Shown here: positions 7,996 through 46,210 of the stretch, piece after piece
Layout: each line of letters opens with the position of its first letter
Numbering within the stretch: the stretch's first letter is position 1
Virus record (IMG/VR): IMGVR_UViG_3300045988_132434
Location: 1-64,000 of that record
Direction: 5' to 3' (one strand)
Source of the DNA: a virus
Length of the DNA stretch: 64,000 nucleotides
Notes under the pieces: model-generated
Database searches by the model: none
Seen by the model: only the letters and a program-made list of their open reading frames with translations
What the model was told of the DNA's origin: nothing
Program-made: the position numbers and the translations under genes

Positions 7996-8901
7996 ATGGA
8001 ATTACGACACCTGAAATCATTTATCTACGTTGCGGAAAACTTATCGTTTACTCTTGCAGCAACGCGCTGCTTCATCACACAATCAGCCATCAGCCAGCAC
8101 ATTAAAGCACTCGAAAACGAACTGAAGTGTAAACTGCTGATAAGAACATCACACGACATAACACTCACTGAAAGCGGAGAAGAACTGTACATTCGAGCGA
8201 AAGAAATTGTAAGACAAGCAGAAGACTGCAAAGAACATATCAGGTCATTAAACAACTGCATGACCGGAGAACTCCGCATTGGTGTAGGGTCTTTTATCGC
8301 ACCATACATCCGTGTCGCTGCATTGCTTTTCATGGAGCGCTACCCCAATGTGCGGATCAACGCTGAGTTTACCAAAGCCACCAGTCTGAATCGCTTACTT
8401 CGTGACCACACGATAGACCTGGCTTTCTCCATGAATACGGCATATCAAAACGAGGGAATAAAAACCAAACCTTGTATTCCATTTCATATCTACACCATTA
8501 TGCGTAAAACACACCCACTGGCCAATCTTGATAAGGTGTCGTATAAAGATCTGCTGCGACATGGTGTTATCATACCCGATGTAGGCGACCGCGTGTTCAA
8601 CACCCTGCAGCAATACATCACTTATGACCTTAACAAACTCAACGTGAAATGTATCGTCAGTGATCCTGACGAAGACCTGGCCATTATAGAAGAAACACCC
8701 TGGGTTACTTTCATGCCAAAGCTATATATGAAGAATCACCCGACACTTATAGCAAAGCCTATTGTTAACCTCGAAAACGAGCTGATGAGCAATGCCCACT
8801 GGATGAAGGATGTGCCGATGAAACTGTCTGCACAGACCTTCCTCGACATCATCCAGCAAGAGGCGATACCCTACATCAACGAACTCGAAAAAACATATTA
8901 A
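7996..8901 (+). CDS. LysR-family transcriptional regulator
   Basis: N-terminal MELRHLKSFIYVAENLSFTLAATRCFITQSAISQHIKALE is a classic LysR wHTH. Length of 301 aa fits, with a substrate-binding-type C-terminal region. Confidence 0.85.
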   Translation: MELRHLKSFIYVAENLSFTLAATRCFITQSAISQHIKALENELKCKLLIRTSHDITLTESGEELYIRAKEIVRQAEDCKEHIRSLNNCMTGELRIGVGSFIAPYIRVAALLFMERYPNVRINAEFTKATSLNRLLRDHTIDLAFSMNTAYQNEGIKTKPCIPFHIYTIMRKTHPLANLDKVSYKDLLRHGVIIPDVGDRVFNTLQQYITYDLNKLNVKCIVSDPDEDLAIIEETPWVTFMPKLYMKNHPTLIAKPIVNLENELMSNAHWMKDVPMKLSAQTFLDIIQQEAIPYINELEKTY

Positions 8902-17783: not shown

Positions 17784-19049
17784 ATGAACATAGACATTAC
17801 GCTTGCTGAAGCATTGGAACGCGCTTCGGCTCGACTACGAGAAAAGATGCTTCACTCGGTGGAGCTGTTGCAGAAAGCAGAGAAGATTGCGCTCAACTAT
17901 GATGCCGAGCAAGGCTATTACTTGGCGTTTAGCGGAGGTAAGGATTCACAGGCACTTTACCACATGACACAGTTGGCCGGAGTGAGGTTTCAGGGTCACA
18001 TGAACCTTACGAGCGTTGACCCTCCCGAAGTGATACGCTTCGTGAAGAAGAACTATCCCGAAGTAGAACTAATCAAGCCTGGCAAATCCATCTTTCAGCA
18101 CGCCATCGAGAAACAGATTTTGCCAACGATGCGTGTGCGCTGGTGTTGTGCCGAGTACAAGGAAACGGCAGGCGCTGGCAAGGTTACGCTTATCGGCATA
18201 CGCAAGGCAGAGAGTTCGCGCCGAGCCAAGCGCAACGAGGTGGAGATAAACAACCGAAAGTTTAGTGGCGACCTCGACGGACAGGAGGAGTACCGACAGG
18301 AGCAGAAGGCTAAACGTGCTCGCCGTAAATCAAAAGAGCAAGGCGTAAACATCACAAACGCTGATGAGGAAAAGACGTTAGGCTGCATCCATGGCAAAGA
18401 GAGCTTGCTTATTTCACCAATTATCTACTGGACAGAGCAAGACGTGTGGGAGTTTCTTAACGATGTGGTAATGGTGCCGCACTGCTCACTCTACGACGAG
18501 GGCTGGCACCGCATAGGCTGCATAGGTTGCCCCATGAGTTCGCACAAGCAGAAGATGCTCGAAAACGAGCGTTATCCGCACATCAAGCGAGGTTGGATTA
18601 GGGCGATTAAGGCCATACGAAACGGGGGGGGTATTCAAAAGAGGATATATCTGGTGGAACGTCCGCAAGGACTGGATGCCTCTCAGAAACGTCAGAGGAT
18701 TGCTCAGGACGCAGGCGGTTACATCAAGCATCCCGACCCCGAACATTGGATGGGGGGGGAATTATCGGAAGTCCAAATCCAAGAGAATCATTGCAACGAA
18801 CTGGCTTCAAACACCATCTCAATTCCTACCAAAAGGATATTTGGAGAGCGATACCGCAAAAGCGAATGGAACGCGATGTGGACGCAAACCATCAAAACGG
18901 GGGGGGGCATTTCTGATAATCTGACAGATGAACAAGAAAACGAAATAGCGGAGAATATCTACGACTGGTGGATTTCTGGCAAATCATACAAACAATGGTA
19001 TGCCGAGAAGTTCCAACAGATGAAACTCGACTTTGGGGAGGAATTATAA
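17784..19049 (+). CDS. PAPS-reductase-like (adenine nucleotide alpha-hydrolase) protein with long C-terminal domain
   Basis: YLAFSGGKDSQALYH PP-loop plus WCCAEYKE..GIRKAESSRR. The C-terminal third contains three G8-G9 tracts. Confidence 0.75.
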   Translation: MNIDITLAEALERASARLREKMLHSVELLQKAEKIALNYDAEQGYYLAFSGGKDSQALYHMTQLAGVRFQGHMNLTSVDPPEVIRFVKKNYPEVELIKPGKSIFQHAIEKQILPTMRVRWCCAEYKETAGAGKVTLIGIRKAESSRRAKRNEVEINNRKFSGDLDGQEEYRQEQKAKRARRKSKEQGVNITNADEEKTLGCIHGKESLLISPIIYWTEQDVWEFLNDVVMVPHCSLYDEGWHRIGCIGCPMSSHKQKMLENERYPHIKRGWIRAIKAIRNGGGIQKRIYLVERPQGLDASQKRQRIAQDAGGYIKHPDPEHWMGGELSEVQIQENHCNELASNTISIPTKRIFGERYRKSEWNAMWTQTIKTGGGISDNLTDEQENEIAENIYDWWISGKSYKQWYAEKFQQMKLDFGEEL

Positions 19050-19722: not shown

Positions 19723-20508
19723 ATGATAGAACTGAATAAGATATATAATGAAGACTGCCTGGAAGGGATGAAACGGATTCCTGACGGGAGCGTGGATTGC
19801 ATCGTGTGCGATTTGCCGTACGGTACTACTGCTTGTGCTTGGGATAGCGTAATTCCATTTGACAAGTTGTGGGAGCAATACAAGAGAATCATAAAGAATA
19901 CTGGTGCTATAGTCTTGTTTAGTCAGCAACCTTTTACGTCTGCGCTTATCATGTCGAACATAGATATGTATAAGTATAATTGGATATGGAAAAAGGAGAG
20001 TGGTACTAATTACTTAAATTCCCATCATCAACCATTGAAGATTACAGAAGATATATGTGTTTTTGGAATGGCTGCAACAACTGAAAGCAAGAAAAAAAAG
20101 TATATGGAGTATCATCCTCAAATGATTAAGGGGTACAAGCCTTATGCCTGCAAAAATGGCATTCAACGAAAAGACTCTGCAATGGTACGAGGAAAATGTC
20201 AAGCGCAGACTGGAGGAGCTGTGACGGTAAGTGATGGTTCTCGTTTCCCTATAAATTTACTCGAATTTATTCGGGATAAGGAGAAGATCCATCCCACCCA
20301 AAAGCCCGTAGCTCTTATTCAGTATCTCATCCGTACCTACTCCAACGAGGGCGACACCATATTAGACAACTGCATGGGCAGCGGCACCACCGCCATTGCA
20401 GCCATCCGCGAGAAGCGCAACTTCATCGGCTTTGAGCTCAACAAGGAGTATTACGACAAGGCTTGTAAGCGCATCAAAATGGAGCTGGCGCAGCCTACTC
20501 TCTTCTGA
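19723..20508 (+). CDS. DNA methyltransferase (beta-class N4-C/N6-A, DPPY-type)
   Basis: VDCIVCDLPYG, HPTQKPVAL and ILDNCMGSGTTAIAA. Confidence 0.8.
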   Translation: MIELNKIYNEDCLEGMKRIPDGSVDCIVCDLPYGTTACAWDSVIPFDKLWEQYKRIIKNTGAIVLFSQQPFTSALIMSNIDMYKYNWIWKKESGTNYLNSHHQPLKITEDICVFGMAATTESKKKKYMEYHPQMIKGYKPYACKNGIQRKDSAMVRGKCQAQTGGAVTVSDGSRFPINLLEFIRDKEKIHPTQKPVALIQYLIRTYSNEGDTILDNCMGSGTTAIAAIREKRNFIGFELNKEYYDKACKRIKMELAQPTLF

Positions 20509-20801: not shown

Positions 20802-22796
20802 ATGCAGCAAGCACATAACATTTACTTAACCAAATTCCAGCAGCAGTCGCTATACATGGGAGCCAAGGACGAGCGAGTGATTGCTGCCCGCCGTGTGGGT
20901 AAGACCGACGGACTGGTGGCTCCCTATGTCTGGACGGCATCAAACTCCATGCCTGGTATGCTCGGCGCATGGGTGGCGGTGTCGCGACAACAGGGCTTTG
21001 GTAAGACCATACCGGGCACCATGGCTGCCATGGAACGTATGTTCGGTTTTACGCAAGGCATACACTTCGGTTGGGGCCGCCCACCGAAACACGCTCGCGA
21101 GAGTATCTTCAAACCTAAGAACTACGACAACTACATTTGGTTTGCCAATGGTTCTGGTTGGGTGCTTATCTCGCTCTCGCAGACTGCCTCTGCCAACTCT
21201 TACACGTTCTCGGCCATGGTGGGCGACGAGGCGAGGTTCTTTCCCTATAAGAAAGTAACGGACGAGTTGATGCCGGCGCTTTCAGGACAGACGCATCCCT
21301 TGGGCGACATCAACTTCTCCGACTACAACCCGATGTATAAAAGTACGCGCTTCCTCTCGGATGCCTCACTCACGGCCAAAGGGTCGTGGTTAGAGAAGGA
21401 GGAAGAGAAACTGGACTTGCAAATCGAGGCAGGCCCGTTCAAAGGTAAGACGTATCGGTGGGTGCAGGAGCAGTTGGAGGAATATGCCAATAAGGTGATA
21501 CGCTACAACGACCTGCTGTATAACGCCAAAAAGACTGGCCACTCGGTTCATGTGGCGCCGAAGGAGCTGCGCACGATGATCCGTGCCATGGCTCTGAAGA
21601 TGATGAAGCATGAGGGACAGTTCAAGATAATGCCCAACCATGGCCTACACGTCACAAAGGGCATGGTGGATATGGCTGTCAACTATAAACTCATTCCTGC
21701 GAATGATGCTGAACTGATTTACGACTACGAGTATCTGATTACGCCCGAAGAGGATTTCGAGATGCAGATGTTTCTGCGCTCAAAAAAGTTTGCGGACGGC
21801 TACCTGAGAGAGCTGCGCCGAGTGGCTTTCTGCGTGCGTCGAGCTTCATCCCTCGACAATGTGGACATTTTGAGTGAGGATTACATAAGGCAGATGCGCC
21901 GCGATTTGCCTCCGATGACCTTCGCAATTTCAATCCTCAACATCAAAGTAAAGAAGACAAACGATGGCTTTTACTCCAACCTCGACATCGATCATGTTCA
22001 CGGATATATCCCCGACGAAATAGACCCTTTGTCGTCAGCCAATTTTACTACGCAAAAAGTGTCGGGCATCATCGGCGGCAAGCGCATCATAAGCGAGAAC
22101 TACCAACCCGACTTCCAGGAGCTCGCCGAGCGCAACGACTCGCGCATGGATGCCGACTGCATCAACTCTCTACCTTTATATATAGCCCTCGACTACAACG
22201 CCAACATCAATACGCTTGTGGTGGGTCAGATGTACGAGCGTGACGGAATGGAATGTCTGAACGTCATCAAGAGCTTCTATGTGAAGAACGAGCGCAAGTT
22301 GCGTGAGCTGATAGCCGACTTCTCTGATTATTACGCACCCAAGCGAGCCATCAACCGTGACGTGACGTATTTCTATGATGCCACAGCAAAGCAGGGAGCT
22401 TCCTACGCTTCGTCAGACGAGCGATTCTATATGACCGTGATTGCTGAACTGGAGAAGCGAGGGTGGAACGTGACAGCCATAGATATGGGTGCTCCCGAGA
22501 AGCACGAGGTGAAGCACAAGATTATCAACGATGGCTTGGCTCACCTCTCCTACCCTGCCATCCGTATCAACCAGGTGAACAATCCCGACCTTATCATTGC
22601 CATGCAACTCTGCGAGGTGCAGATTTCGTACAAGGGATTCCACAAAGACAAAAGCCAAGAGAAGAAACCGGAGAGCGAGGACACACTGCCCCTGCAGCAA
22701 CGTACCGACTTCACGGATGGCTTCGATACGCTGTACTTAGGTTGCAAGCTGTTCCGTAGTGGTGGCGGTTGGTTTGTATTACCAAGCGGACGATAA
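20802..22796 (+). CDS. terL: terminase large subunit
   Basis: Walker A-like AARRVGKTDG, Walker B AMVGDEARFF, and a size of 664 aa. Confidence 0.75.
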   Translation: MQQAHNIYLTKFQQQSLYMGAKDERVIAARRVGKTDGLVAPYVWTASNSMPGMLGAWVAVSRQQGFGKTIPGTMAAMERMFGFTQGIHFGWGRPPKHARESIFKPKNYDNYIWFANGSGWVLISLSQTASANSYTFSAMVGDEARFFPYKKVTDELMPALSGQTHPLGDINFSDYNPMYKSTRFLSDASLTAKGSWLEKEEEKLDLQIEAGPFKGKTYRWVQEQLEEYANKVIRYNDLLYNAKKTGHSVHVAPKELRTMIRAMALKMMKHEGQFKIMPNHGLHVTKGMVDMAVNYKLIPANDAELIYDYEYLITPEEDFEMQMFLRSKKFADGYLRELRRVAFCVRRASSLDNVDILSEDYIRQMRRDLPPMTFAISILNIKVKKTNDGFYSNLDIDHVHGYIPDEIDPLSSANFTTQKVSGIIGGKRIISENYQPDFQELAERNDSRMDADCINSLPLYIALDYNANINTLVVGQMYERDGMECLNVIKSFYVKNERKLRELIADFSDYYAPKRAINRDVTYFYDATAKQGASYASSDERFYMTVIAELEKRGWNVTAIDMGAPEKHEVKHKIINDGLAHLSYPAIRINQVNNPDLIIAMQLCEVQISYKGFHKDKSQEKKPESEDTLPLQQRTDFTDGFDTLYLGCKLFRSGGGWFVLPSGR

Positions 22797-27232: not shown

Positions 27233-28420
27233 TTATTCGTCGAGCAACATAGGCATTTCAAGCGCCAACACCTTGGGTGCGGGTTCGTCAGCAGTAAATA
27301 CTACGGCATGTGAGTTGTCAAGCAGACGCATGCGGATGGTGTTTGACGGTATGGCAGAGATACACGTTCTGAACGAATCAGATTTCAGTCCGATCTTGAA
27401 ACCATCTGTGCACGCAGCTTCTGACAGGAATACCTGGTCCTCGCCCGACTTGGCAAAGTCTGAGTCGCTGGCCGATACGGTAAGAAACATACCATTCTTC
27501 TCAACCTCGATAAGATTGCTGACACTGCTTGAGAAGAGACTGACACGACGCAGGATGCCCAGCATCTCCTTCTTGTCAAACACGACGTAATAAGGACTCG
27601 ATTTTGGTATGACGCTGTTGTAGTTTGGATATTTACCCTCGATATGCTTACAGATCAGTTCGGTGTCACCCGACGAAAAACGGATGACGTGACCGTCATT
27701 TTCGATGTCAACCGTCTCACATCCGTCGAAAGCCGACAGGATTTTGAGGTAGTTGCGATGAACTAACGTCTTGCGAGATTCTCCGCTCCGGAAGAAATCA
27801 CTGCCGCCTTTCTGTTCGTCGTTGCTGTGGTTGCGCTTGTATAGTATATTGCCGTCTGATCCGACAAATACGACCTCTGATTTATCTTCTGCTACGTCAA
27901 CACATAACACCGACATAACGGGACGCAACAAATCTTCGGCTAAGAAGTTTTGTGCCTGCGACAATACCTCGTCCACCACCACCATAGGCAACTGGATGTG
28001 GGTGCAGGCTGCATCAACGGACTTCATGAAGGTGAATGCTTTTCCGTCTTCACAGGGCACCGATACCTTACCGGTCTTGACATGATCAACGTCACCGGTG
28101 CAATAGGTCATTTCTACCGACTGATTGTTTTTAGCAAAGTCGAAGGTAATGGTACAGTCGGGCAGCGTTGACAGAAAAGGAATGACGACATTTACCGACA
28201 AGGCAATGGGCGAGGTAAACTCTCCTTCTACGATAGTCAATGGTGCAGGTACGGTCAACTGCGACTCAACTGTTGACGAGGTGAAGAAAAACTTGTCGCG
28301 CTCCTTCATCGTCAGCAATACGTTGTTGAATATGGCAACAACATTCTTGGTAGTCATACACTTTGCCGACTTCTGCAATGCCTCTCTCAGGAGTTTGGAT
28401 GATTGTGCTTGTAATTTCAT
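27233..28420 (-). CDS. dnaN: DNA polymerase III beta sliding clamp-like protein
   Basis: The N-terminus has the DnaN pattern (L..AL......K....I..NVLL). Also VGSDGNILYK and the hallmark GKYPNYNSVIP. Length is 395 aa. Confidence 0.75.
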   Translation of the reverse strand: MKLQAQSSKLLREALQKSAKCMTTKNVVAIFNNVLLTMKERDKFFFTSSTVESQLTVPAPLTIVEGEFTSPIALSVNVVIPFLSTLPDCTITFDFAKNNQSVEMTYCTGDVDHVKTGKVSVPCEDGKAFTFMKSVDAACTHIQLPMVVVDEVLSQAQNFLAEDLLRPVMSVLCVDVAEDKSEVVFVGSDGNILYKRNHSNDEQKGGSDFFRSGESRKTLVHRNYLKILSAFDGCETVDIENDGHVIRFSSGDTELICKHIEGKYPNYNSVIPKSSPYYVVFDKKEMLGILRRVSLFSSSVSNLIEVEKNGMFLTVSASDSDFAKSGEDQVFLSEAACTDGFKIGLKSDSFRTCISAIPSNTIRMRLLDNSHAVVFTADEPAPKVLALEMPMLLDE

Positions 28421-30449: not shown

Positions 30450-33400
30450 TCAGAACGGCAAATCTTCCTCGTGGATATTAGGAAGCGTTGGAGCCGTTGC
30501 AGCAGGTGGTGCCATGCGCCTACCCTGCTTTCTGATTTTGTTGTTCTCCCACCGTTCTTTTTCCTCTACTGTAAGCGTAATGATATGACCATCATCATCG
30601 CGGTATGGTAACGGATCGGGACGCTCTGCATATTCTTTGGCTATGCGCTTGAGCTCGCGGTAGTCCTTCGGTATCGCGTCCTTACCTGGGCGGTAAAAGA
30701 AAAAAACGTGCTTGGAGGTCTGCATATAGCGGATAAACTTCGGCTCAATGGTGTTGTCATTCTCCCATTCACGACCAGTAAAGTATTCCTGCGTAACCCA
30801 CGCCTGTAGCTTGAAGCACTTGCGCTGTTTGTCGCTCTCGTTCTCGAAGAGGTGTTTGGGGTTACACGTTATCGACATATTCTCGCAATAGTCGTATATC
30901 TTCTTCTTGAAGGTAGCTCGGCTATACTCCTTCGACTTGCCCTCGGAAGCATCCGCCCAGTCGCGCATAAACTCGTTGAACATGTCGTCAGTGCATATTG
31001 GCACTCCGTAAACCTCGTTGCGAGAGAAGAACCACTCGAAGTAGCGGACAATGCTCTCCGTGAGCTTCTGAACCATCTGACGGCGACGCACATTGCCTTG
31101 CGGTGCAATGGCAAAGGTATGGTAGCGCATCAGGAACTGCACTGCCAAAGCGCAAAGGTAGATGGTCTGATTGCGGTCGGTGTCGGTGAGCTTTGCAGGG
31201 TCTGTATCAAAACGCTTCATAATGTCGGATGGTGATCGTGCCGGCTGTCGCTTTTGAGGATTCTCGCGAGCAAAGCGGTCGGAGAAACTAACCAGTGGAA
31301 AACGACCAATAGTAGAGGGGTCGTCGTCGCTCAACGGACTGTTGCTTGTTATGACGTGCATCGGTGAGTCTTCCATCTTCAAACTGACGGGGTCGCCAAA
31401 TTTCTTTTCAACCTTCGTACCTTTGGTAATCTTGTTGTAGAAGTATTTGAGCGGAAAGCTCTTCTGCTTGTCCTCCCAGTGTACAACACGATACTTGCCG
31501 GGATATATGAGCAAGTCGGAAAGACAGAACTTTGCATCGACAATGGTAAGAAAGTCTTTCATATCCACACAGAACACATTGACTGCCGAACCAACTACGA
31601 GGTTTACCAATACCGATTTACCACTACCACCAGAGGCTTGCTTCTCGTCGGCAATATTATCCTCAAGAAGATAAGGGCAGACGTTCTGCATCCCTTCCCA
31701 TGAACGATAACAAAGTCTGCCAATGCCCGAAAGCATATTGGCGAAATGGGCGTTCATTACGGCTCGCTCGTCATCAGTAAGTTTCTCTTTGCTACGCAGC
31801 ACGTCTCGCTCTCGCTCCCAGAGGGTGTTTGAGAATCCACGCACAATACGCAGGATAGGCCAAAGATCTTTTTCTTGCTGTCCTTGCCAGTTGACATCCC
31901 AACGATAGGTCTGTGCCCATTCCATAAGGTCGCCACGCATCTGCTTTATCTCGTCGTAGCTGAACACTGGCGACCCGTCCTCGTTCTGCATCTTCTCCTT
32001 TTTGTCTATCGCTTCCAGTCGGTCGCGATATTCCTGACGCTCGGTAATTGTAAAAGGAGTCTTGAACGCTCTCATCGTGAAGTCATACGGCTTCTTGGCG
32101 AGCGAGGGGATGAAGAAGTTGATGTCGTCATACGACACCGTGCGGATGCTGTCGGGTGTTATCTTCAATGCCACATTATTGAAGTAGAAATACTCTGTAT
32201 TGGCATCAAAAGCATCGGCAAAGTTTATCACCATGCTCTGCAAACCTCCAGCAGACTTTTCTGTGAAGGCCTTATCCACCATATTGGCGCAGTCGGACAT
32301 CAAGCGTCGCTCGTTGTCGCTATGCCACCATGTCTGTTCTATATATTCCAAAAGCATTGTCTTTGCTGCCTGAATGATACTCTTTGCGTCGATATACTCT
32401 ACGAAGCATTTGTTCAGGTGGATATACTGTCCCACGAGGTCGGTGCTCTCGGGGTCTATCATGCGGTAATATCCGTGTGCGGTCATAAAGAGCCACAATC
32501 GCGTAGGCGATACCTTGCAGGTAGGCAGTTTGGGCTTTCCACTTCGAGGGTCACGCGGATATTCTATCTCGAATGGCTCCGTGTTCCTGGCTCCACGCAA
32601 TCGGGAGTAAAGCGGCAGACGAACATCATGGTCGAACTGGAAGTTCTCTTCTGCGTTCATGGTATATGTCAGCATATAGTCGCGCACACTTCGGGGTGAG
32701 CAGCCATATAGCCATTGCCAGCGTCGGCAATAACGTGAGCGGAAACCTTCGGGCAGCATGGCATAATACAATGAACTGAACTTGCTGCATATCGCTCCGC
32801 AGTCGCGCTGTGAGGCAATGTCGTTGGGATAGAGGATAATGACACGCTCGGCAAAACGGTTCATCTTCTGATATTGCACAGCACTGAAATCAAGATTTTC
32901 CCGTTTCCACTCGCCACGCTCTATGTACCAGAAGTTTCTCCGTCCGATGGAGAACGCCACATGATACCAACAGAAGTCTTGAAAATGCTGGTCTTCTGCC
33001 TTGTCAAGGCGCAAGGAACGCATAGCATAATACACGCTCAATGCGTCTTCGGGTGTACGACAAAAAACGATATTACGGGCTTTTATCTCGGCGGTGGGGA
33101 TTGTGTATTTCTCCTCTTTGAAAGTTCCTTTCCCGTTACCTTCTTTATCTTCTCTCTCTACCCAAATCTTCTTATCTTCAGTGTATTTCTCTTCGGGATC
33201 GTACTTAGCGATGGCAGCATGAACGGCAGTATTATCGCTCTTGCGATTATCCATTGCATGAACAAACACGTTGTCGCCCATGAGCCACTTGCTCACCTTC
33301 CTCACACTGTGCTCCTCGGCGGTAGAGAACACTATCGGTTCGCTCCCTGCCATGGCCGGACGGAAGAAGCAACCGTAGGAGTTCTGCGGTCCTACCTCTT

Positions 33401-34109
33401 GCGAGGCGAAGCACACAAACAGCGGATTCCACGGCGTACCGTGGATAATCTCGCTCACATGCTGACCGTCACGTATTACGTCGGGCAGAGTGACACTCAG
33501 CAGGGAGTAGATGCGGAAGTCCTTGTTGAGCATGTCGGGGGTAAACGTACTGCCAAAGCCGAAACGAGGCAATCCTTTGTCGAGCGTCACCTCGCACCCA
33601 AGGGCTGCAAGCTCTTGTGGCGAGAAATCGGTCTTCGGCATAAAAGAGAACGTCTCGATGGTCTGCTGTGCCTGAGTACGGTAGTCCATCTTGGCAAACA
33701 CCTCTGGGAAGGCACGGCGCACCTCGTCGGAGTCACCATACACGTCCTTCACCAATCGCTGACAGATGCGCTGAAGACTATATCCGTGCATCGGGAGGTT
33801 CATCTTTGCTGCATATAGCTCGATGGCTCCGTAGCCTGTCTTACCCGTGCGAGTGCATTTCCATTTTACGGCTCCATGTTCTGCCATGCGATTGCCGTCA
33901 ACGCCGTTGCCGTCGTACATGCCACCGCGCTCATTCTTGTAGATGATGAAGTGGGGTGTCTGCTTGGCATCGACATCCACGTCCTGCCCCTTCTTGCAGA
34001 TCGGACAGAAACACGCGGTCTGGCCCTCGATGTGCTGCTCCGATGCAGGCTTCACGAGAAGGTGCAAGTCGATGTTTGCAAGACGGTTTAATATCGGGTG
34101 ATAGAACAT
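30450..34109 (-). CDS. primase-helicase (Zn-finger N-terminus, D5/P4-type NTPase)
   Basis: CFCPICKK zinc motif near the N-terminus and Walker A ASGGSGKSVL at about residue 815. Size is 1219 aa and the protein ends EEDLPF. Confidence 0.65.
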   Translation of the reverse strand: MFYHPILNRLANIDLHLLVKPASEQHIEGQTACFCPICKKGQDVDVDAKQTPHFIIYKNERGGMYDGNGVDGNRMAEHGAVKWKCTRTGKTGYGAIELYAAKMNLPMHGYSLQRICQRLVKDVYGDSDEVRRAFPEVFAKMDYRTQAQQTIETFSFMPKTDFSPQELAALGCEVTLDKGLPRFGFGSTFTPDMLNKDFRIYSLLSVTLPDVIRDGQHVSEIIHGTPWNPLFVCFASQEVGPQNSYGCFFRPAMAGSEPIVFSTAEEHSVRKVSKWLMGDNVFVHAMDNRKSDNTAVHAAIAKYDPEEKYTEDKKIWVEREDKEGNGKGTFKEEKYTIPTAEIKARNIVFCRTPEDALSVYYAMRSLRLDKAEDQHFQDFCWYHVAFSIGRRNFWYIERGEWKRENLDFSAVQYQKMNRFAERVIILYPNDIASQRDCGAICSKFSSLYYAMLPEGFRSRYCRRWQWLYGCSPRSVRDYMLTYTMNAEENFQFDHDVRLPLYSRLRGARNTEPFEIEYPRDPRSGKPKLPTCKVSPTRLWLFMTAHGYYRMIDPESTDLVGQYIHLNKCFVEYIDAKSIIQAAKTMLLEYIEQTWWHSDNERRLMSDCANMVDKAFTEKSAGGLQSMVINFADAFDANTEYFYFNNVALKITPDSIRTVSYDDINFFIPSLAKKPYDFTMRAFKTPFTITERQEYRDRLEAIDKKEKMQNEDGSPVFSYDEIKQMRGDLMEWAQTYRWDVNWQGQQEKDLWPILRIVRGFSNTLWERERDVLRSKEKLTDDERAVMNAHFANMLSGIGRLCYRSWEGMQNVCPYLLEDNIADEKQASGGSGKSVLVNLVVGSAVNVFCVDMKDFLTIVDAKFCLSDLLIYPGKYRVVHWEDKQKSFPLKYFYNKITKGTKVEKKFGDPVSLKMEDSPMHVITSNSPLSDDDPSTIGRFPLVSFSDRFARENPQKRQPARSPSDIMKRFDTDPAKLTDTDRNQTIYLCALAVQFLMRYHTFAIAPQGNVRRRQMVQKLTESIVRYFEWFFSRNEVYGVPICTDDMFNEFMRDWADASEGKSKEYSRATFKKKIYDYCENMSITCNPKHLFENESDKQRKCFKLQAWVTQEYFTGREWENDNTIEPKFIRYMQTSKHVFFFYRPGKDAIPKDYRELKRIAKEYAERPDPLPYRDDDGHIITLTVEEKERWENNKIRKQGRRMAPPAATAPTLPNIHEEDLPF

Positions 34110-37697: not shown

Positions 37698-38279
37698 CTA
37701 TCGTCTATAGTAAAGCCATGTACAAATTCCAATAGCAGCTATCCAGAACAAAAAGATTGCGATTAGATCAGATGTTGATGTTGGCTTTATATCATCCGTA
37801 TTCTTCTCTTCCTCCGTATTCGTGCTGTCTTTCTTTGCCCAATGGGTACCAACGTCCAATTTATTGTGCAACATAAGGCTGTCTATGGTGTGCTGCATCC
37901 GTGATATGGTCTCTTCCTGGTGATTTAGGCGTGCCTCGTATGTGGCATTACGCTCATAGTCACCCTTGCGGTGTATGGTGCGGTCGGTGGTGGTGGTCTT
38001 GTTGCCCTGAGCATCTGTGCTCTCGGTCACTCGCTCTGTGATGGTCTCCTCGTTGCTGCCTTTGTCGGTCATGGTACCAGAGGTGTGATTATCGTCCATA
38101 ACTGTAACGGTGCTGCTGTCCGTCCTTGTCTCCGACTTCACCATGCTGTCCTTAACGCTGGCTACGACACTATCGCGCTGTTGCTCACTACTCCCCTGCT
38201 CCACCTTACGGGAGGCAGCGCAGCTCGCAAACGTGATTACAGCCAGAATCCATAATGTAATGATCTTGATTTTTCCCAT
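37698..38279 (-). CDS. lipoprotein with C-terminal transmembrane anchor (u-spanin-like architecture)
   Basis: Lipobox ITFASC at residues 15-20 and a C-terminal LIAIFLFWIAAIGICTWLYYRR. Confidence 0.4.
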   Translation of the reverse strand: MGKIKIITLWILAVITFASCAASRKVEQGSSEQQRDSVVASVKDSMVKSETRTDSSTVTVMDDNHTSGTMTDKGSNEETITERVTESTDAQGNKTTTTDRTIHRKGDYERNATYEARLNHQEETISRMQHTIDSLMLHNKLDVGTHWAKKDSTNTEEEKNTDDIKPTSTSDLIAIFLFWIAAIGICTWLYYRR

Positions 38280-40340: not shown

Positions 40341-40895
40341 TTACAAGTCTTCGTTGAATATCGCCTCACATTTCAAAAAAATATCCATATCGGTGTACGT
40401 CAGAAAGATAGAAACACCGTGGCCTGAGCTGGATGGTTTCAATTCTTGAAGGATGAAACCAATACTGTCACCTGTTTCATCAGGAATATTAAACGCCAGC
40501 CCAATGACGTCGCCGTCTGGACCTAAATTCTCCTCGGGTGTGGTGTTTGGATATTTCTTCTGCAAACTCTCAATTAAGTTCAAGAAAGGAATATGAGCTG
40601 ACTCTACAGTTGGATATTGTAATTCAACCTCAGCACTAAACACCATTTTGTTTTTAGGAATATAGGCTACTACAATTATAGCGTCTTCAGCCATAAACCT
40701 ACCGTTAAAGACCCTGACACCTGGTCCAGCGGCTTTTGATTGGGCTGCATCGTATGTCACACCCTTAGCCTTCAGCTTCAGAGCAAAGTTATCCACCGTT
40801 CCGTCCAATGGTATTCCCATGAACTTCATGTGCTGCTGTGCGCTCACTGCCATACACAGGCAGAGCACAAACAATACTGATATAATCTTCTTCAT
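40341..40895 (-). CDS. secreted hypothetical protein
   Basis: Signal peptide MKKIISVLFVLCLCMAVSAQQ. Confidence 0.55.
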   Translation of the reverse strand: MKKIISVLFVLCLCMAVSAQQHMKFMGIPLDGTVDNFALKLKAKGVTYDAAQSKAAGPGVRVFNGRFMAEDAIIVVAYIPKNKMVFSAEVELQYPTVESAHIPFLNLIESLQKKYPNTTPEENLGPDGDVIGLAFNIPDETGDSIGFILQELKPSSSGHGVSIFLTYTDMDIFLKCEAIFNEDL

Positions 40896-40914: not shown

Positions 40915-41328
40915 TTACATTTTGTTTCTATCCAAAAACTCTATCACTGCCTGTAATGCCAGGTCCTTGATAGGCACACCAGTACGCATCTTCATCAAGG
41001 CGATACGCTCGTAATACTCCATAGGCACGTAGATAGTGATGCCGTTCTCGGTTTTCTTACCTTTTGGCTTGCGTATATTCATCGCAATGTCGTTGCTGAA
41101 TGATGGGGTTGCCGGCTGTTCTGTCCCAGGAATGGTGGAATTCAAAACTTCGGTGGTTGAAGTTTCGGCTGTCGCATCAGCGTTCATTGTATCTCCCCCA
41201 CTCTCCTTTTTCTCTCTGTTCTCCTGGCGCTGTTGTCTGCCAGCCTCCAATATACGCTCGTTCTCGTCTATAGCTTTTGATTTTTCCAAACCAAAATGCG
41301 CAACTCGTTTTTTCATTTCTCTTGCCAT
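40915..41328 (-). CDS. ribbon-helix-helix ParG/CopG-like centromere-binding protein candidate
   Basis: The C-terminal ITIYVPMEYYERIALMKMRTGVPIKDLALQAVIEFL is an RHH-like fold signature. The gene lies directly downstream of parA. Confidence 0.5.
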   Translation of the reverse strand: MAREMKKRVAHFGLEKSKAIDENERILEAGRQQRQENREKKESGGDTMNADATAETSTTEVLNSTIPGTEQPATPSFSNDIAMNIRKPKGKKTENGITIYVPMEYYERIALMKMRTGVPIKDLALQAVIEFLDRNKM

Positions 41329-41339
41329 AATCTTTAATA

Positions 41340-42248
41340 TTAAAAGGTGAAACTGTTGATTATCTCTTTAGTGAAGCGCTCGTAGTCTATTCCTACCCTG
41401 CTATATGGTGCATAAGAAAAAATATCTTCCTGCATAGCCTGGGCTTCCACCATCTTCGTATCGCGACGTGTGTATGCGTCAAACATATAGTCTTGGTACT
41501 TCTCTCCCAGGTATGCCTTAAATTCCTTGGTGGCGTTGGTCTGATCGTTGCTCATCACCATCAGCAAGCCTCGGATGTCAAGCTCTGGATTAAGATCTTC
41601 GCGCGTTTCTTCAATGGCGTTGATGATTTCAGCAATACCTTTTGTTGCCAACACCTCCAGTTGCACGGGCAATACCACACTTGTGGCTGCCGTGAGCGCA
41701 TTGTATGTGAGTAGCGACATAGCCGGAGGACAGTCTATAAGCACGTAGTCAAAGGCTTCTATGACGGTGTTCACTCCCTCGTCTGCCAGTTCGGTACCAG
41801 CCATTTCGTTCAGAGGCTTGGCAAGCAACTTGCAAAGGGCTTTGCGAGGCATGGCACGCTGATTAAGAAACGGTTCAATGGATATGAGCTGCTGCGCAGC
41901 CGGAGCGAGGTAAATGCCTTCGCGTACCTGATAGACGGGCAAATTGCTCTGTTGCACTAATGCGTCGTAAACGGTAGGCTTACCGACATTCTGAGTTTCG
42001 CTCCACCCAAAGAGAAACGAAGCACACGCTTGGGGGTCGAGGTCGATAATGAGTACACGGGGCAATCGGTGGTGCCCATCGGCATCCTCACCGAAACTGC
42101 CTTTGCCAAATCGACGTAAGCCTGCTGCCAGGCTCTGCACTGTTGTTGTTTTGCCTACACCGCCTTTGTGGTTGACAAAGGCAAGTACTTCTCGTAGTCT
42201 TTCCATATTATATAAAGTATTTAGTGTTAATAATGTCTGCTTGCGCAT
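41340..42248 (-). CDS. parA: ParA-family partition ATPase
   Basis: Deviant Walker A NHKGGVGKTTT. The true start may be the internal ATG at 42206. Confidence 0.85.
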   Translation of the reverse strand: MRKQTLLTLNTLYNMERLREVLAFVNHKGGVGKTTTVQSLAAGLRRFGKGSFGEDADGHHRLPRVLIIDLDPQACASFLFGWSETQNVGKPTVYDALVQQSNLPVYQVREGIYLAPAAQQLISIEPFLNQRAMPRKALCKLLAKPLNEMAGTELADEGVNTVIEAFDYVLIDCPPAMSLLTYNALTAATSVVLPVQLEVLATKGIAEIINAIEETREDLNPELDIRGLLMVMSNDQTNATKEFKAYLGEKYQDYMFDAYTRRDTKMVEAQAMQEDIFSYAPYSRVGIDYERFTKEIINSFTF

Positions 42249-42273
42249 AGAGAAAACATTGTTTTCGTATCAC

Positions 42274-42292
42274 GTTGCAAATTTAAGAATTA
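42274..42292 (-). promoter_or_regulatory. promoter TAATTCTTAAATTTGCAAC (identical to 5229-5247)
   Basis: CAAATTTA at 42278-42285 on the plus strand. Confidence 0.55.
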
Positions 42293-42299
42293 TAATTGA

Positions 42300-42650
42300 T
42301 ATAACCAAACATTCACACATATTTATTTGTTTATTTATTGATTTATTTGTTTATTGTTTCGTTTATGGCTTGGTTACTTTCTTTCTTTCTTTCTTTGTGT
42401 ATTTATATATGTATTGATTACTTTGTTTATAAGTATATTTATGTATATGTTTGTGTGTTTATTTATTGATTGATAAAAACGTTGATTTATTTATATGTTA
42501 GTTAATTTGTTTGTGTATTTGTGTATTTATGTGTGGATGTATTTGTGTTAACGTGGAATTTATTATTCGTGTTAATATGGATTTATGGTTATGTGGATTT
42601 GTGGAAATGTGGAATTGTGGATTTATTGAAATGTGGATTTGTGCGAATTT
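42300..42650. repeat. T/G-rich short-repeat field upstream of parA (centromere-like) including a (TTCT)5 microsatellite
   Basis: Repeats of TTTATTTGTTTATT, GTGTATTTGTG and at least 6 copies of TGTGGA(A/T)TT (42585-42645). (TTCT)5 lies at about 42377-42397. Confidence 0.55.
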
Positions 42651-42656
42651 TATAGT

Positions 42657-42702
42657 CAACAAAAAAACGAAGAACACGGATATTATCTTCGTGTTCTTCG
42701 TG
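42657..42702 (-). terminator. strong rho-independent terminator
   Basis: Minus strand reads CGAAGAACACG-AAGATAATATC-CGTGTTCTTCG followed by T7-8. Confidence 0.8.
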
Positions 42703-42726: not shown

Positions 42727-43629
42727 TCAAATGGTGATGTCGGTAGTTTCGCTGTTCCACTCATCGTTGACGGTCATCGCCATGCGCTGTTGGTGATTAT
42801 AGAGTGACCCTGTAATAGTGGTGATTCTGTTGCGCTCAAAGGGTACGTCGGGGATGGTGATAGTGGCATAAGGACTGCTTGTGCTATTCATAGTAAACAC
42901 AAGGTCGGTCTTATATCCTGCTTTTGGTACCAACAGGATGTAGGCGAGGGTATTGTCTGTTGTGCCTCGGAGATTCTTTACGTCAGAGGTGCGCTGATTT
43001 TTCACCGCTTCAATAACGTCCATCGTTGCCCATGACAGCGCCTTGTGCTCTTGGAAGTCGAGCGTGATGGTGGTGCAATCATCTGGGAAAACGTCTGTGC
43101 TGTTGACTGAGAGTTTCGCCACCAAGCGGTCCAATGTCATATTTACCGTTGCCGTTCCTGCACCTACGCTCACGTCTTTCTCAGCTCCGAAGGTGTCCGA
43201 TGTCTTGGTGGCTGTCAGTGCTACAGGCTGTGATGCTGTAATGGGAGTGAGGATGTTGGGTTCTACAGGCCAAGTGATATTTCCTGCATCCCATAACGTA
43301 GGTTCTTGGCTACGTGTTGCTACCACCTTCAATGTGTGATTACCATAGTCGAGTGTCAGGTCAGGCTCGGCAAAGTCCTTTGCCGTACTCGTTTGGTGGA
43401 GCACCTGCAGGAGTTTGCCCGTTGCCTTGTCGTAGTCCAGAATATAAAAATCCGTCAGTGCCTTGCTGTTGGCAGTGAGTGCAGCGCGTGTCTCTACCTG
43501 CATGCCACAAACGAGTTTGACGTGTGCCTTCTCCGTCGGCTGTTCCTGGATGGCTTCTTCATTGTTACACGCTGTAGTCAGGACGGTTGCCAGCATCGTT
43601 GCCAGCATCATAAAATTGGTTTTCTTCAT
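42727..43629 (-). CDS. FimB/Mfa2-like fimbrillin-family lipoprotein
   Basis: Lipobox LTTAC. VETRA.., TLDRLVAKLSV and ERNRITTITGSLY match patterns I recall from Bacteroidales Mfa2/FimB-type proteins. Internal start taken at 43629. Confidence 0.5.
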   Translation of the reverse strand: MKKTNFMMLATMLATVLTTACNNEEAIQEQPTEKAHVKLVCGMQVETRAALTANSKALTDFYILDYDKATGKLLQVLHQTSTAKDFAEPDLTLDYGNHTLKVVATRSQEPTLWDAGNITWPVEPNILTPITASQPVALTATKTSDTFGAEKDVSVGAGTATVNMTLDRLVAKLSVNSTDVFPDDCTTITLDFQEHKALSWATMDVIEAVKNQRTSDVKNLRGTTDNTLAYILLVPKAGYKTDLVFTMNSTSSPYATITIPDVPFERNRITTITGSLYNHQQRMAMTVNDEWNSETTDITI

Positions 43630-43661
43630 TGTTTCTGGGGGTAGTTCGTGATAGTTCTTCT

Positions 43662-44120
43662 TTACTCTCCAGGCACCGTGAAATCTATCCACTTCACGTT
43701 AGGAAAAAACTGCTGATAGTTGTCCTTGGTAATGTCCTGCTCCCAGTCTGTACCATCCATGTACTCGATGGTAACGCTGACAGGAAGGGCACGCACTTTT
43801 TCCACACCGATATAGCCGGTCGTTGTCATGCGCTTATATTTCTTTCCTGGGTCAAACGGTCCTGTGCCCGACACGTTGCGCAGTTGTAAGTTGGGTGTCA
43901 TGCCAGACGACACGTCGCCAACCTCATTCACGGCACACCATTCCACTTTTACGTACTTTACCTGCTTTTCACCGTCACACGTAAAACCGACATGTAATGC
44001 CTTGGTGGTATAGAGCAGCGTCGGTTTGAGTTTGAAGGTAGAAAAGACTACCTGTGCTTGTGCTGCATGGGCAACGGTCAACATTGCCAACAGCGATAAA
44101 CATCTACAAAATTTCTTCAT
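43662..44120 (-). CDS. secreted hypothetical protein
   Basis: Signal peptide MKKFCRCLSLLAMLTVAHAAQAQ. Confidence 0.55.
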   Translation of the reverse strand: MKKFCRCLSLLAMLTVAHAAQAQVVFSTFKLKPTLLYTTKALHVGFTCDGEKQVKYVKVEWCAVNEVGDVSSGMTPNLQLRNVSGTGPFDPGKKYKRMTTTGYIGVEKVRALPVSVTIEYMDGTDWEQDITKDNYQQFFPNVKWIDFTVPGE

Positions 44121-44153
44121 GTTTTTAATATTTTAATGCGTTAATAATTTATT

Positions 44154-45692
44154 TTATTCATTCAGCCCACCGAGCATCGGCATGAAGAGGATGGCAGCAC
44201 CTATGAGTGCAAAACCTACCACACCCATGGCCATTGCCATTAGCACAGCCAGTCCGCCAGCCACTATCTTCTTCACGGCAGTTCCATTGCCGTGGTCTTC
44301 CTCCGCGTCTTCCTCTCGCAGCGTCGGTTCACCTACCTGGGGATAGTGGCGCACCTGTTGGGGTTCTATACTGTGATTGTCTTCAGAGGCTATAATAGGC
44401 TCGCTATCAACGGCCGGTCTGTTCTCGATGGTCGGCTTATTATCGATGGTCGGCTTATTATCGATGGTCGGCTTATTATCGATGGTCGGCTTATTCTCAG
44501 TAGTCGGTTCGTCCTCTACCTTACCATCCACACACACGATAACGTCACCATGCAGACTAACCTCAATCTTGCAGCCCGGCACAAGGTCCTTCTGATTGAA
44601 GGTTTTCTCGCTTCCGCAGTTGGCATGGGCAAAAAGGTGTCCGTTCATCTCCACCTCGTCAAAGTCGGCGACATACGTCACCTTACCCGTCTTCTCGCCT
44701 ACCGTGGTATGATGACCGCGATACGTGGTAATAGCCTTAAACACGGGGCGAAACTTAAACGCGCAGTTATACTTTGCGTCATGGTCTGTCTGTCCTATGC
44801 GGTCGTAATAGTCGTAGTTGTCAAACTTGAATACAAGGCCGTCGGTAGGGTAGGGCAGTGTCTCTCTCTCCACCTCGGCAGAGCACACAATGTTCTCGAT
44901 GTCCTGCTCCAGTTCGGCATCCGGCTTATCCAGTTCTATCTGCTCTATGAAACCGCAAGAGAGAAAGCCCCAATATCCCAGGTCGTCCATAGCGTAATAA
45001 TGCGACGTAACATCGTTAGCAATTACGCGGAACGGATGAAACTCCAGACGCTTGCACTCGTCAGCCACAGCCTCCTTTTTCGCCATGATACCGTTGCTTG
45101 TAGATCTTGGTGATTTGCCAGCCTTGCTATAACTGGCAAACTCATCGAGTGAGATAATCACCTCACCACGCACCTCCACGCGATCATCATCTTTCCATTG
45201 CTCCACATATTCCTCCACGCCATCCACATACTTCATGTGTTCCAGGCAGTCGATACCATACAGCTCTTTGCCATGTCCGTAAGTGGCCTCCGAGAGTGTT
45301 CCGCGACGATAAACAAGGCTCACGGTCTCTCCATCGAATTTCCATTCTACATCCACCTTCGCACCCTTGCTGCTAATATTGGCAGCACGCTGCTGTGCTC
45401 TCAGATACTTCACCACCGCCTTGGCATCGTGCAACTTCTTCATCGAGAGGCAAGCCGCGCGACGTGCCACCGTGCGCTTTCCGTTGCCGTTCTCGCTGTA
45501 GCACTGCTGCGTTGGCGAGTCTTTCAGCACCTCGTCTGGGTGCTCTTCCTCATACGCTTGCAAAGCAAAGTACAGTGCGTCATATTCCTCGTCGCTGATA
45601 GTGGGAGCATTCAGGGCGAAATATCTGTAATCATGCACCTTCACCTCGTCCACCATAGTGCGGTAGTCGTCGAAATTCTCAATTTGTTTCAT
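44154..45692 (-). CDS. NAD-dependent DNA ligase core (Ia-NTase-OB) fused to a hexapeptide repeat and a C-terminal membrane anchor
   Basis: Ia domain: HDYRYF..ISDEEYDALY..HPDEVLKDSPTQQ. Ligase motifs: KFDGE (KxDG), EVRGEV, DGLVFKFD and AFKFRP. OB-like domain: VGEKTGKVTYVA..GDVIV. These are followed by 3x KPTIDN + 1x KPTIEN, and the protein ends in about 34 hydrophobic residues. No Zn-finger, HhH or BRCT domain is seen. Confidence 0.7.
   Translation of the reverse strand: MKQIENFDDYRTMVDEVKVHDYRYFALNAPTISDEEYDALYFALQAYEEEHPDEVLKDSPTQQCYSENGNGKRTVARRAACLSMKKLHDAKAVVKYLRAQQRAANISSKGAKVDVEWKFDGETVSLVYRRGTLSEATYGHGKELYGIDCLEHMKYVDGVEEYVEQWKDDDRVEVRGEVIISLDEFASYSKAGKSPRSTSNGIMAKKEAVADECKRLEFHPFRVIANDVTSHYYAMDDLGYWGFLSCGFIEQIELDKPDAELEQDIENIVCSAEVERETLPYPTDGLVFKFDNYDYYDRIGQTDHDAKYNCAFKFRPVFKAITTYRGHHTTVGEKTGKVTYVADFDEVEMNGHLFAHANCGSEKTFNQKDLVPGCKIEVSLHGDVIVCVDGKVEDEPTTENKPTIDNKPTIDNKPTIDNKPTIENRPAVDSEPIIASEDNHSIEPQQVRHYPQVGEPTLREEDAEEDHGNGTAVKKIVAGGLAVLMAMAMGVVGFALIGAAILFMPMLGGLNE
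44409..44516. repeat. 18-bp tandem repeat (4 near-perfect plus 2 degenerate units) inside the ligase-like gene
   Basis: gatggtcggcttattatc at 44427, 44445, 44463 and 44481. Confidence 0.85.
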
Positions 45693-46030: not shown

Positions 46031-46210
46031 TTACTGTTGTTTCTGTTCCTGTGCCACTGCCATGATAGTGTGGATGGTGTCTGTGAGGTATTTGCCGCCA
46101 CCGTGTGCCATAATCCACTCGTGTGCGTCGTCCGTCACTACGTATTGTCGTCTATTACCTCCGATGGCAGGTCTGCCTGCCGATCGTGTCGTTTTCCTGC
46201 TCTTTTCCAT
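46031..46210 (-). CDS. small (59 aa) DNA-binding-like protein MEKSRKTTRSAGRPAIGGNRRQYVVTDDAHEWIMAHGG...
   Basis: Manual translation; it falls below the ORF-track cutoff. The GRPxxGG plus beta-strand-helix pattern resembles RHH/MobC-type proteins. Confidence 0.4.
   Translation of the reverse strand: MEKSRKTTRSAGRPAIGGNRRQYVVTDDAHEWIMAHGGGKYLTDTIHTIMAVAQEQKQQ

Follow-up and report, generated by a model that had tools for sequence, protein, structure and literature searches.

What does a phage do with a DNA ligase that has lost the modules with which its bacterial counterparts hold DNA, ends in a long hydrophobic tail, and stands directly ahead of two genes for envelope proteins? The question is raised by a gene for a 512-amino-acid (aa) protein of the nicotinamide adenine dinucleotide (NAD+)-dependent ligase type in a 64,000-nucleotide (nt) stretch of viral DNA (positions 1 to 64,000 of IMG/VR record IMGVR_UViG_3300045988_132434), hereafter the window. 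A sequence-only reading of this DNA held that a membrane-tethered, NAD-consuming enzyme beside envelope proteins is not explained by replication. We identified a conserved association of the ligase with partition and replication-type genes, and slightly favour the explanation that it is the nick-sealing ligase of a plasmid-like phage replicon, leashed to the inner membrane.

The gene (Table 1) codes for the motifs EWKFDGE, VEVRGEV, PTDGLVFKFD and CAFKFRP, and the domain Ia, adenylation (nucleotidyltransferase, NTase) and OB regions that had been recognised from such motifs were recovered in Pfam, PDB and NCBIfam searches. The Pfam match to Nlig-Ia (aa 16-55) is sub-threshold, at 23.7 bits for a 27-bit cut-off, and residues Y24, D34, Y37 and D38, which correspond to Y22, D32, Y35 and D36 of Escherichia coli LigA (EcoLigA), are invariant in the close family. 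Within the adenylation domain K118 of motif I (with D120 and G121), E177 of motif III, D284 and K289 of motif IV, and K313 of motif V are all conserved, and among PHROGs the protein matches the NAD-dependent DNA ligase family (E=1.9e-64). Alignments to LigA chains in the PDB are confined to aa 9-402 (E about 1e-22), and the match to the NCBIfam LigA equivalog TIGR00575 covers profile positions 3-388 of 652, scoring 197 bits against a cut-off of 444. Downstream of the OB domain, where LigA would have HhH, we found repeats and low-complexity sequence. No Zn-finger, HhH or BRCT domain was matched by Pfam in the 512-aa protein, and the pattern CxxC...CxxC is absent from it and from every relative with a hydrophobic tail. 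Because the Pfam, PDB and NCBIfam LigA matches all end at the OB domain, the three modules are truly absent, as the sequence-only reading had it.

The protein ends in the hydrophobic stretch IVAGGLAVLMAMAMGVVGFALIGAAILFMPMLGG (IVAGG...MLGG) and three last residues, with a Kyte-Doolittle mean of 1.91 over 19 residues, in keeping with the acidic linker and roughly 34 hydrophobic C-terminal residues noticed earlier; the N-terminus is hydrophilic and has no signal sequence. We identified such a tail in all 63 IMG/VR loci encoding ligases 61-75% identical to that of the window (19-residue hydropathy 2.0-2.9). The same plan of Ia-NTase-OB, low-complexity or charged spacer and hydrophobic C-terminus was found in 25 full-length clusters with core identities of 28-55%, obtained by an exhaustive search of 50%-identity cluster representatives, and the more distant tails often end in ...FFLPLLxGAFK. 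A profile scan with an alignment (A3) recovered 22 further IMG/VR loci of this tail-anchored type (a term that we use for the predicted topology), on contigs of up to 135 kb, where single-sequence scans with four distant members (P0140, P0125, P0137 and P0127) had returned no match; the tail is thus conserved in 85 loci, 63 close and 22 distant. The ratio of nonsynonymous to synonymous substitution rates (dN/dS) is 0.36 in the tail and 0.06-0.07 in the core, such that both are under purifying selection and the tail under a weaker form of it, which is the expectation if hydrophobic character rather than exact sequence is selected. AlphaFold placed a single helix at the tail (aa 470-502), with a predicted local distance difference test score (pLDDT) below 50.

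Given its presence in all 63 related loci and in many independent assemblies, the tail is neither a chance occurrence nor a frameshift. The sequence-only reading had allowed that a frameshift or assembly error might have created it, and a read-through open reading frame (ORF) would be a further artefact of this kind; we consider the probability of any of these negligible, since different studies have yielded the same architecture in over 100 independent assemblies and the divergence of the tail is synonymous-biased. On these comparisons the tail is real and old, supporting a description of the protein as a truncated LigA core to which a genuine, conserved, membrane-anchor-like tail and a repeat-bearing spacer have been joined.

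It is improbable, in our estimate, that the C-terminus is anything other than a stable inner-membrane anchor, whether an interaction or assembly element (for instance of a virion-packaged, ejected ligase acting at the DNA entry site) or a regulated membrane-binding segment. Such roles would suit a stretch that is 34-38 residues long and rich in Gly, and whose most conserved part is the terminal motif A-x-F-F/L-L-P-L/M-L-x-G-x-F-K, closer in appearance to a recognition motif than to a generic transmembrane helix. They are harder to reconcile with a mean hydropathy over 19 residues of 1.9-3.2 in every member, with basic residues just ahead of the stretch and a very short C-terminal end, both of which fit tail-anchored proteins, and with the position of the gene amid early and replication genes rather than structural ones; the NCBIfam C-terminal sorting models also fail to match. 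Separately, C-terminal sorting signals of the PEP-CTERM, GlyGly-CTERM and type IX secretion kinds were ruled out as identities for the ligase C-terminus by the absence of any match to their NCBIfam models.

The core and the predicted anchor are joined by a disordered spacer, which among 117 close homologues varies between 54 and 120 aa, contains 23% Glu and 14% Pro, and is composed of degenerate hexapeptides of the (E/D)EP(I/V)IE type. In the window, ENKPTIDNKPTIDNKPTIDNKPTIEN stands after the OB domain, is followed by an acidic stretch, and is encoded by an 18-bp repeat, bearing out the three KPTIDN units and one KPTIEN unit read earlier from 18-bp DNA repeats. A 98%-identical relative has two KPTIDN units and relatives at 90-92% have one, and by this comparison the array is a recent local expansion. 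We additionally noted a motif, RHYPQVGEPTLREE ([KR]x[YR]xQVGEP; YPQVGEPTL; ligase aa 448-460, window 44268-44330), that is conserved across the sub-clade within the hypervariable spacer, and is kept as YRMVGEP or YRMVGDAP in relatives of about 38-55% identity. It could be a docking site for a partner. No beta-clamp-binding motif or consensus was recognised by eye in the spacer or in this conserved motif.

We investigated the distribution of the ligase and found more than 700 close homologues. The closest are annotated 'MAG TPA: DNA ligase [Caudoviricetes sp.]' and lie on contigs of 85-105 kb, and the only matches among species-representative genomes were in two Prevotella metagenome-assembled genomes, in one case on a contig of 94.5 kb, a length that fits an entire phage genome. 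The GenBank phage collection contained no close relative, all matches being below 60% identity and those listed at 23-29%. The window itself belongs to a tailed phage of the gut whose host is probably Prevotella: it codes for a tape-measure protein, a tail-fibre-like protein and a holin, and also for ThyX, a DNA methylase, ParA, and the phage's own DnaN-like sliding clamp (27233-28420) with a 3'-5' exonuclease nearby. Judged from these homologues, the ligase gene is genuine, and is one of the conserved core genes in a lineage of Prevotella-associated tailed phages of about 85-105 kb.

In a neighbour-joining tree of the core, a single tree without bootstrap or other support values, the truncated ligases formed one clade apart from canonical LigA; the tail-anchored members are spread through this clade, and tail-less forms of 364-418 aa are interspersed among them. 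Ligases that have both lost the three modules and gained a predicted anchor fall into 25 or more clusters at 50% identity and into hundreds at 90%, and lie on near-complete phage contigs of 85-140 kb. Five IMG/VR contigs of 65-140 kb (loci L080, L081, L089, L092 and L097) encode tail-less, minimal LigA-type ligases of 373-384 aa that end at the OB domain and are not followed by ParA. By eye, the C-terminus of a 491-aa protein recovered in the same scan (L078) resembles the BRCT-type ends of canonical LigA, and a further protein (P0146) has the core, a segment that to the eye looks BRCT-like, and a tail. As read from these sequences, C-terminal modules are being shuffled within the truncated clade.

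The neighbourhood of the ligase is conserved in a fixed order: tail-anchored ligase, a slot for cargo genes, AT-rich repeats, ParA, a small protein, and a protein of about 500 aa with weak similarity to the plasmid initiator RepM. By tblastn of window proteins against the 63 IMG/VR loci at 61-75% ligase identity, ParA is present in 61, the two exceptions ending at a contig edge, the 137-aa protein that follows it in 60, and the 516-aa RepM-like protein in 58. Among the distant tail-anchored loci ParA lies downstream in 20 of 22, compared with none of 10 loci with tail-less or canonical ligases; in one locus (L079) the ParA match starts 16 nt past the ligase stop codon, and the order of the block is kept in a locus (L069) at 30% ligase identity. 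The RepM-like protein diverges quickly, at 23-88% identity across close and distant relatives, and a PDB sequence search with the 516-aa protein returned nothing. The AT-rich block contains words of the ATCCACA and AAATAAA types in families of 24-45 nt, and a conserved ATTATAATTCTTAAATTTGCAACGTGATAC element directly upstream of parA, and the blocks of relatives are equally AT-rich (72-76%) with different repeat words; the TAAATTTG box in it fits what we take to be the Bacteroidetes -7 promoter consensus, TAnnTTTG. From the conserved order and the ParA linkage, the ligase therefore appears to be part of a plasmid-like replication and partition block, and the fixed position beside ParA and a RepM-like gene, even at 30% identity, speaks against the earlier statement that replication does not explain it. 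The ligase-ParA-Rep-like block suggests a phage-plasmid lifestyle.

We additionally noted minor genes in and near this block. The ORFs at 37698-38279(-) and 40341-40895(-), both inside the par/rep block, encode small envelope-targeted proteins: one of 193 aa, in which a lipoprotein signal is combined with a transmembrane segment at the C-terminus, and one of 184 aa with a signal peptide and with counterparts in only 26 of the 63 relatives. In the distant locus L069 a 209-aa ORF in a position similar to that of the 193-aa gene likewise starts with a hydrophobic N-terminus containing Cys and shows a hydrophobic stretch towards its C-terminus. Two genes upstream of the ligase, and overlapping the start of the ORF between, a 59-aa basic protein (…SAGRPAIGGNRRQYVVTDDAHEWI…, 46031-46210(-)) is found in 60 of the 63 relatives; it had no PADLOC match, and from its composition we would guess that it might be a small DNA-binding regulator.

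Under the explanation that we favour, the catalytic core is that of an NAD+-dependent ligase in which the clamping modules are replaced by a fast-evolving acidic, Pro-rich spacer and a predicted C-terminal anchor. Because there is no N-terminal signal, the enzyme should stay cytoplasmic, and its catalytic domain would be exposed to NAD+ and DNA on a flexible leash from the inner membrane. There it would seal nicks or Okazaki fragments of the phage's own DNA at a membrane-attached replication or partition site, and partners such as the phage's own sliding clamp may stand in for the lost DNA-binding domains. The two envelope genes would be lineage-specific cargo in the slot, co-transcribed with the ligase in this genome. 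A broader form of this view, which we put forward only tentatively, is that phage-plasmids of gut and other host-associated Bacteroidota use active NAD+-dependent ligases without HhH, Zn-finger or BRCT, permanently tethered to the inner membrane, for final joining at a membrane-attached site with ParA partition.

We assessed the probable activity of the enzyme in a MAFFT alignment of the ligase with LigA of E. coli MG1655 and 48 relatives. Residues K115, D117, G118, G172, E173, R200, R277, D285, K290 and K314 (E. coli numbering), which we take to be required for ligase chemistry, vary little or not at all among 25 tail-anchored relatives and 11 tail-less ones, and the NMN-binding (nicotinamide mononucleotide) residues Y22, D32, Y/F35 and D36 of domain Ia are likewise kept in these 36. 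With the chemistry and NMN-binding residues intact, self-adenylylation with NAD+ is therefore expected. Nick sealing is plausible, not assured, because minimal adenosine triphosphate (ATP)-dependent ligases manage with NTase and OB domains (PMC7470946), and sealing may need partners, for example the phage clamp.

Several observations weigh against a nick-sealing ligase on a membrane leash. The catalytic core has a net charge of -27, compared with -10 in E. coli LigA, and no latch-like insertion makes up for the missing HhH. R208 is replaced by N or A, R379 by L, E143 by Q, N or I, and R333 mostly by K or A throughout the clade, all positions that we take to be essential DNA contacts in EcoLigA; in the window ligase the equivalents of R379 and R333 are Leu and Lys. 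R136 of motif Ia falls in a gap of the MAFFT alignment for this sub-clade, and the HMMER pairwise alignment places Tyr138 there. The hydrophobic stretch, at 34 residues and with a conserved Pro near its end, exceeds a typical single transmembrane helix, and the RepM similarity of the 516-aa protein is weak (27 bits, cut-off 250). The HhH domain of E. coli LigA is described as giving essential DNA binding (PMC7470946). Finally, the 64 kb amount to about two-thirds of the genome, such that a second ligase is possible; no ATP-dependent ligase family was found among the window ORFs scanned, many small ORFs being outside the scan.

The replaced contacts are also the first argument for a ligase-derived enzyme with a non-canonical job in the same replicon module, which would self-adenylylate with NAD+ and not perform ordinary nick sealing; we regard this as unlikely, yet as the main rival. 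Possible tasks are the adenylylation or joining of special ends on DNA or RNA, action restricted to a substrate that is bound to protein in the complex at the origin or partition site, and tethering to the membrane, with the ligase fold used mainly for binding. An eight-residue deletion after motif III, found in the truncated clade together with extra positive charge at aa 70-115, would agree with such a departure, as would the loss of all three DNA-binding and clamp-closing modules from a very acidic core, and the tight linkage to ParA and a Rep-like gene rather than to polymerase genes. In contrast, every scoreable residue for the chemistry of steps 1 to 3 is kept, the OB domain persists with a dN/dS of 0.07, a sign of strong purifying selection, NTase and OB domains can suffice for nick sealing in ATP-dependent minimal ligases (PMC7470946), and, within the limits of the ORF scan just given, no ATP-dependent ligase was found. 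Segment lengths are those of canonical LigA apart from the eight-residue deletion, and a latch-like insertion compensating for HhH was ruled out on this ground. An AlphaFold2 model of the ligase, built from a shallow alignment of 31 close homologues (A2), had a mean pLDDT of 38 and was unusable.

We investigated whether the two envelope genes belong with the ligase. The arrangement of three genes in a row closed by a terminator was borne out, with gaps of about 33 nt each, and the second gene does encode a signal-peptide protein. The lipoprotein starts with Met at 43629, the Met at which its homologues also start, every listed full-length one being about 285-315 aa long, and its N-terminus, MKKTNFMMLATMLATVLTTAC, is a lipoprotein signal peptide. 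The terminator was recovered by a repeat finder and by folding; its loop exceeds 8 nt, and a consensus terminator scan overlooked it for that reason. In this genome the three genes probably share a transcript. The description of the lipoprotein as Mfa2/FimB-like fared less well, its only such match being a faint one to NCBIfam Mfa1 (E=9.4e-4, 18.5 bits, cut-off 130): Pfam gave DUF6562 alone (E=0.014) and no fimbrillin family, a PDB profile search returned nothing at E up to 10, and the AlphaFold model, from a shallow alignment of 24 close homologues (A1), was unusable at a mean pLDDT of 40.

It had been proposed that the ligase, the secreted protein and the lipoprotein form a lysogenic-conversion, exclusion or NAD-linked defence or anti-defence module, and we now consider this very improbable. 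The tight spacing of the three genes on one strand ahead of one terminator, and the envelope targeting of two of them, typical of conversion and exclusion genes, would be expected of such a module, and a survey of co-occurrence partly upheld it: the trio is kept together, in independent samples, in relatives with 90-98% ligase identity. It occurs only there, and is absent both from the 63 loci at 61-75% identity and from 33 more distant ones. The 152-aa gene is found in none of the 63 and the lipoprotein in 17, and the gap between ligase and ParA, anything between 332 bp and 4 kb in length, is occupied by six or more distinct families of small genes that are interchangeable between loci, about one third of the gaps being shorter than 0.4 kb and apparently too short for a gene. 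Among PADLOC defence models, the one match for the ligase and its nine neighbours was that of KwaB to the lipoprotein, at chance level (E=0.0074). The tailed ligase long predates the cargo, and the three genes do not behave as the functional unit that had been suggested.

The 152-aa gene also leads a life of its own in bacterial chromosomes and in another phage. Copies 83% identical occur in bacterial contigs amid genes for topoisomerase (topA), arginine decarboxylase (speA), an extracytoplasmic function (ECF) sigma factor and riboflavin kinase (ribF), and copies 76% identical in an unrelated phage, beside an amidase (Amidase_2) and near a reverse-transcriptase (RVT_1) gene; no ligase gene was called in the flanks of about 6 kb around these external copies (loci L070-L076). 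The gene looks host-derived, and as if it had been picked up independently by different phages. Because the slot contents vary and the genes recur elsewhere, the envelope genes are mobile cargo in a hot-spot downstream of the ligase. As part of the explanation that we favour, we think it somewhat probable that they are functionally independent of the ligase, and they may be conversion or exclusion genes in their own right.

We compared the ligase with known systems. With LigA (E. coli, PDB 2OWO and 4GLX; TIGR00575) it shares an alignable Ia-NTase-OB core, the residues of motifs I, III, IV and V and those that bind NMN; it differs in lacking the C-terminal 270 residues (Zn-finger, HhH and BRCT), in its added spacer and anchor, and in the replacement of several residues that we take to contact DNA. 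Short phage NAD ligases likewise stop at the OB domain (PHROG 3359, a profile of 325 positions; PDB 9HU3 and 9I5I, a 339-residue 'DNA ligase (NAD(+))', of which the 9HU3 chain may be either a natural minimal enzyme or a truncated construct), and the tail-less relatives of 364-418 aa (P0126, P0129, P0134, P0138, P0147, P0157 and P0162) are members of the truncated clade and carry its derived substitutions. These short enzymes differ in having neither spacer nor hydrophobic tail, and the tail-less versions in IMG/VR do not lie beside ParA. E. coli LigB (NCBIfam NF005987) and the entomopoxvirus NAD+ ligase are also relatives of LigA in which part of the C-terminal modules is gone: BRCT and two of the Zn cysteines are missing from LigB, and Zn and BRCT from the entomopoxvirus enzyme. 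Both are soluble and retain HhH, whereas the phage ligase lacks HhH too and is predicted to be tail-anchored.

Lig E (PMC7470946) offers a parallel as a minimal NTase-OB ligase distinguished by its targeting to a compartment rather than by extra DNA-binding domains. In contrast, it is an ATP-dependent, soluble periplasmic enzyme of bacteria with an N-terminal signal peptide, whereas the phage ligase is of the NAD type, C-terminally anchored and predicted to face the cytoplasm. Phage phi29 sets a precedent, as its membrane proteins p1 and p16.7 have been proposed to anchor the replication machinery (PMC4974454); these are small, non-enzymatic organisers from a protein-primed phage of Gram-positive bacteria, whereas here a replication-type enzyme would carry the anchor itself. 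In bacterial tail-anchored proteins (TssL/SciP, and the E. coli set; PMC6794478, PMC3426401), a second precedent, the one hydrophobic segment likewise stands at the extreme C-terminus, a signal sequence is missing from the N-terminus, and the N-terminal domain is cytoplasmic, the last of which is predicted for the phage ligase; what sets the phage stretch apart is its unusual length and its conserved FFLPLLxGxFK-like end. A limited literature search found no DNA ligase or replication-type enzyme with a tail-anchored topology.

Short LigA-type proteins that end at the OB domain are already known from the PHROG family and the 339-residue PDB entry, and the clade of phages with tail-anchored ligases is apparently undescribed. 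A review of ligases from 2020 regards the domains appended to the core of NAD-dependent enzymes as intrinsic to ligation and highly conserved, and describes NAD-ligases in viruses as few and scattered; a survey of viral NAD+ systems from 2022 covers phage LigA and solo Ia domains, and the word 'transmembrane' appears nowhere in it. A full-text search for membrane-anchored or truncated NAD ligases found no description, and neither the combination of truncated core, spacer and tail anchor nor the ParA linkage was described in our limited literature search. If the enzyme proved both active and tethered, it would be the first membrane-anchored DNA ligase, and would contradict, with an example from nature, the view that C-terminal appendages are intrinsic to ligation by NAD-ligases. 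Active enzymes of this clade would define a minimal NAD-ligase scaffold of biotechnological interest, and would provide a testable handle on the old idea of replicons that replicate and segregate at the membrane. The recognition of a ligase-repeats-ParA-Rep-like module, and of a cargo hot-spot with host-derived envelope genes, in abundant uncultured Prevotella-associated phages should also aid the annotation of gut viromes.

Table 1. Positions in the window of the ligase gene, its parts and the neighbouring elements, with the evidence for each.
Feature	Position	Strand	Evidence
Tail-anchored (predicted) LigA-core protein, coding sequence, 512 aa (Ia-NTase-OB, spacer, hydrophobic C-terminus)	44154..45692	-	Pfam, PDB, PHROGs and NCBIfam matches
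Domain Ia, NMN/NAD+-binding helices, aa 1-70	45483..45692	-	Pfam Nlig-Ia, E=7.9e-5; residue mapping
Nucleotidyltransferase (adenylation) domain, aa 74-316	44745..45473	-	Pfam PF01653 DNA_ligase_aden, E=3e-26
OB-fold domain, aa 332-397	44502..44699	-	Pfam PF03120 DNA_ligase_OB, E=2.7e-9, 37.2 bits (cut-off 32.9)
Exact 18-bp tandem repeat, 3.9 copies, 100% matches, encoding KPTIDN x3 and KPTIEN	44425..44495	-	Repeat finder
E/P-rich disordered spacer of variable length, aa 398-475, including the RHYPQVGEPTLREE motif	44268..44501	-	Homologue comparison, predicted coil
Hydrophobic tail, predicted transmembrane anchor, aa 476-509, with 3 residues after	44166..44267	-	Hydropathy and conservation
152-aa signal-peptide protein, lineage-specific cargo, host-derived or host-shared	43662..44120	-	0/63 related loci
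300-aa lipoprotein, lipobox LTTAC, acidic residues after Cys; variable cargo	42727..43629	-	17/63 loci
Intrinsic terminator closing the ligase/cargo transcript	42660..42701	-	12-bp stem at 42667-42701, then U7; -21 kcal/mol, z=-4.5
AT block (76%) of iterated short repeats with TAAATTTG box, upstream of parA; candidate parS/iteron origin	42250..42659	.	Repeat finding
ParA-type ATPase, downstream partner of tail-anchored ligases	41340..42248	-	Pfam AAA_31, 1.5e-36; CbiA; PHROG ParA, 3e-47; synteny
137-aa protein after ParA, candidate centromere-binding partner (by position)	40915..41328	-	60/63 loci; no family match
516-aa protein with weak similarity to RepM (iteron-plasmid initiator)	38390..39940	-	NCBIfam RepM, E=2.6e-6; synteny

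Pfam and PHROGs gave no match for most of the small ORFs neighbouring the block, nor for a 664-aa ORF elsewhere in the window (20802-22796(+)). Between the exonuclease and the sliding clamp, a 1219-aa ORF (30450-34109(-)) has no Pfam or PDB match and only a weak one to a PHROGs family of unknown function; it may be a very divergent replicative enzyme. We additionally identified nucleotide-metabolism and DNA-modification genes at 1267-2754(-), 17784-19049(+) and 19723-20508(+), among them a ThyX-like thymidylate synthase, a guanylate/cytidylate-kinase-like P-loop kinase, a PAPS-reductase-like protein (PHROG 424) and an N6/N4 DNA methyltransferase. A complete regulator of the LysR family (HTH_1 and LysR_substrate; 7996-8901(+)) is also encoded inside the phage, and seems an unusual cargo.

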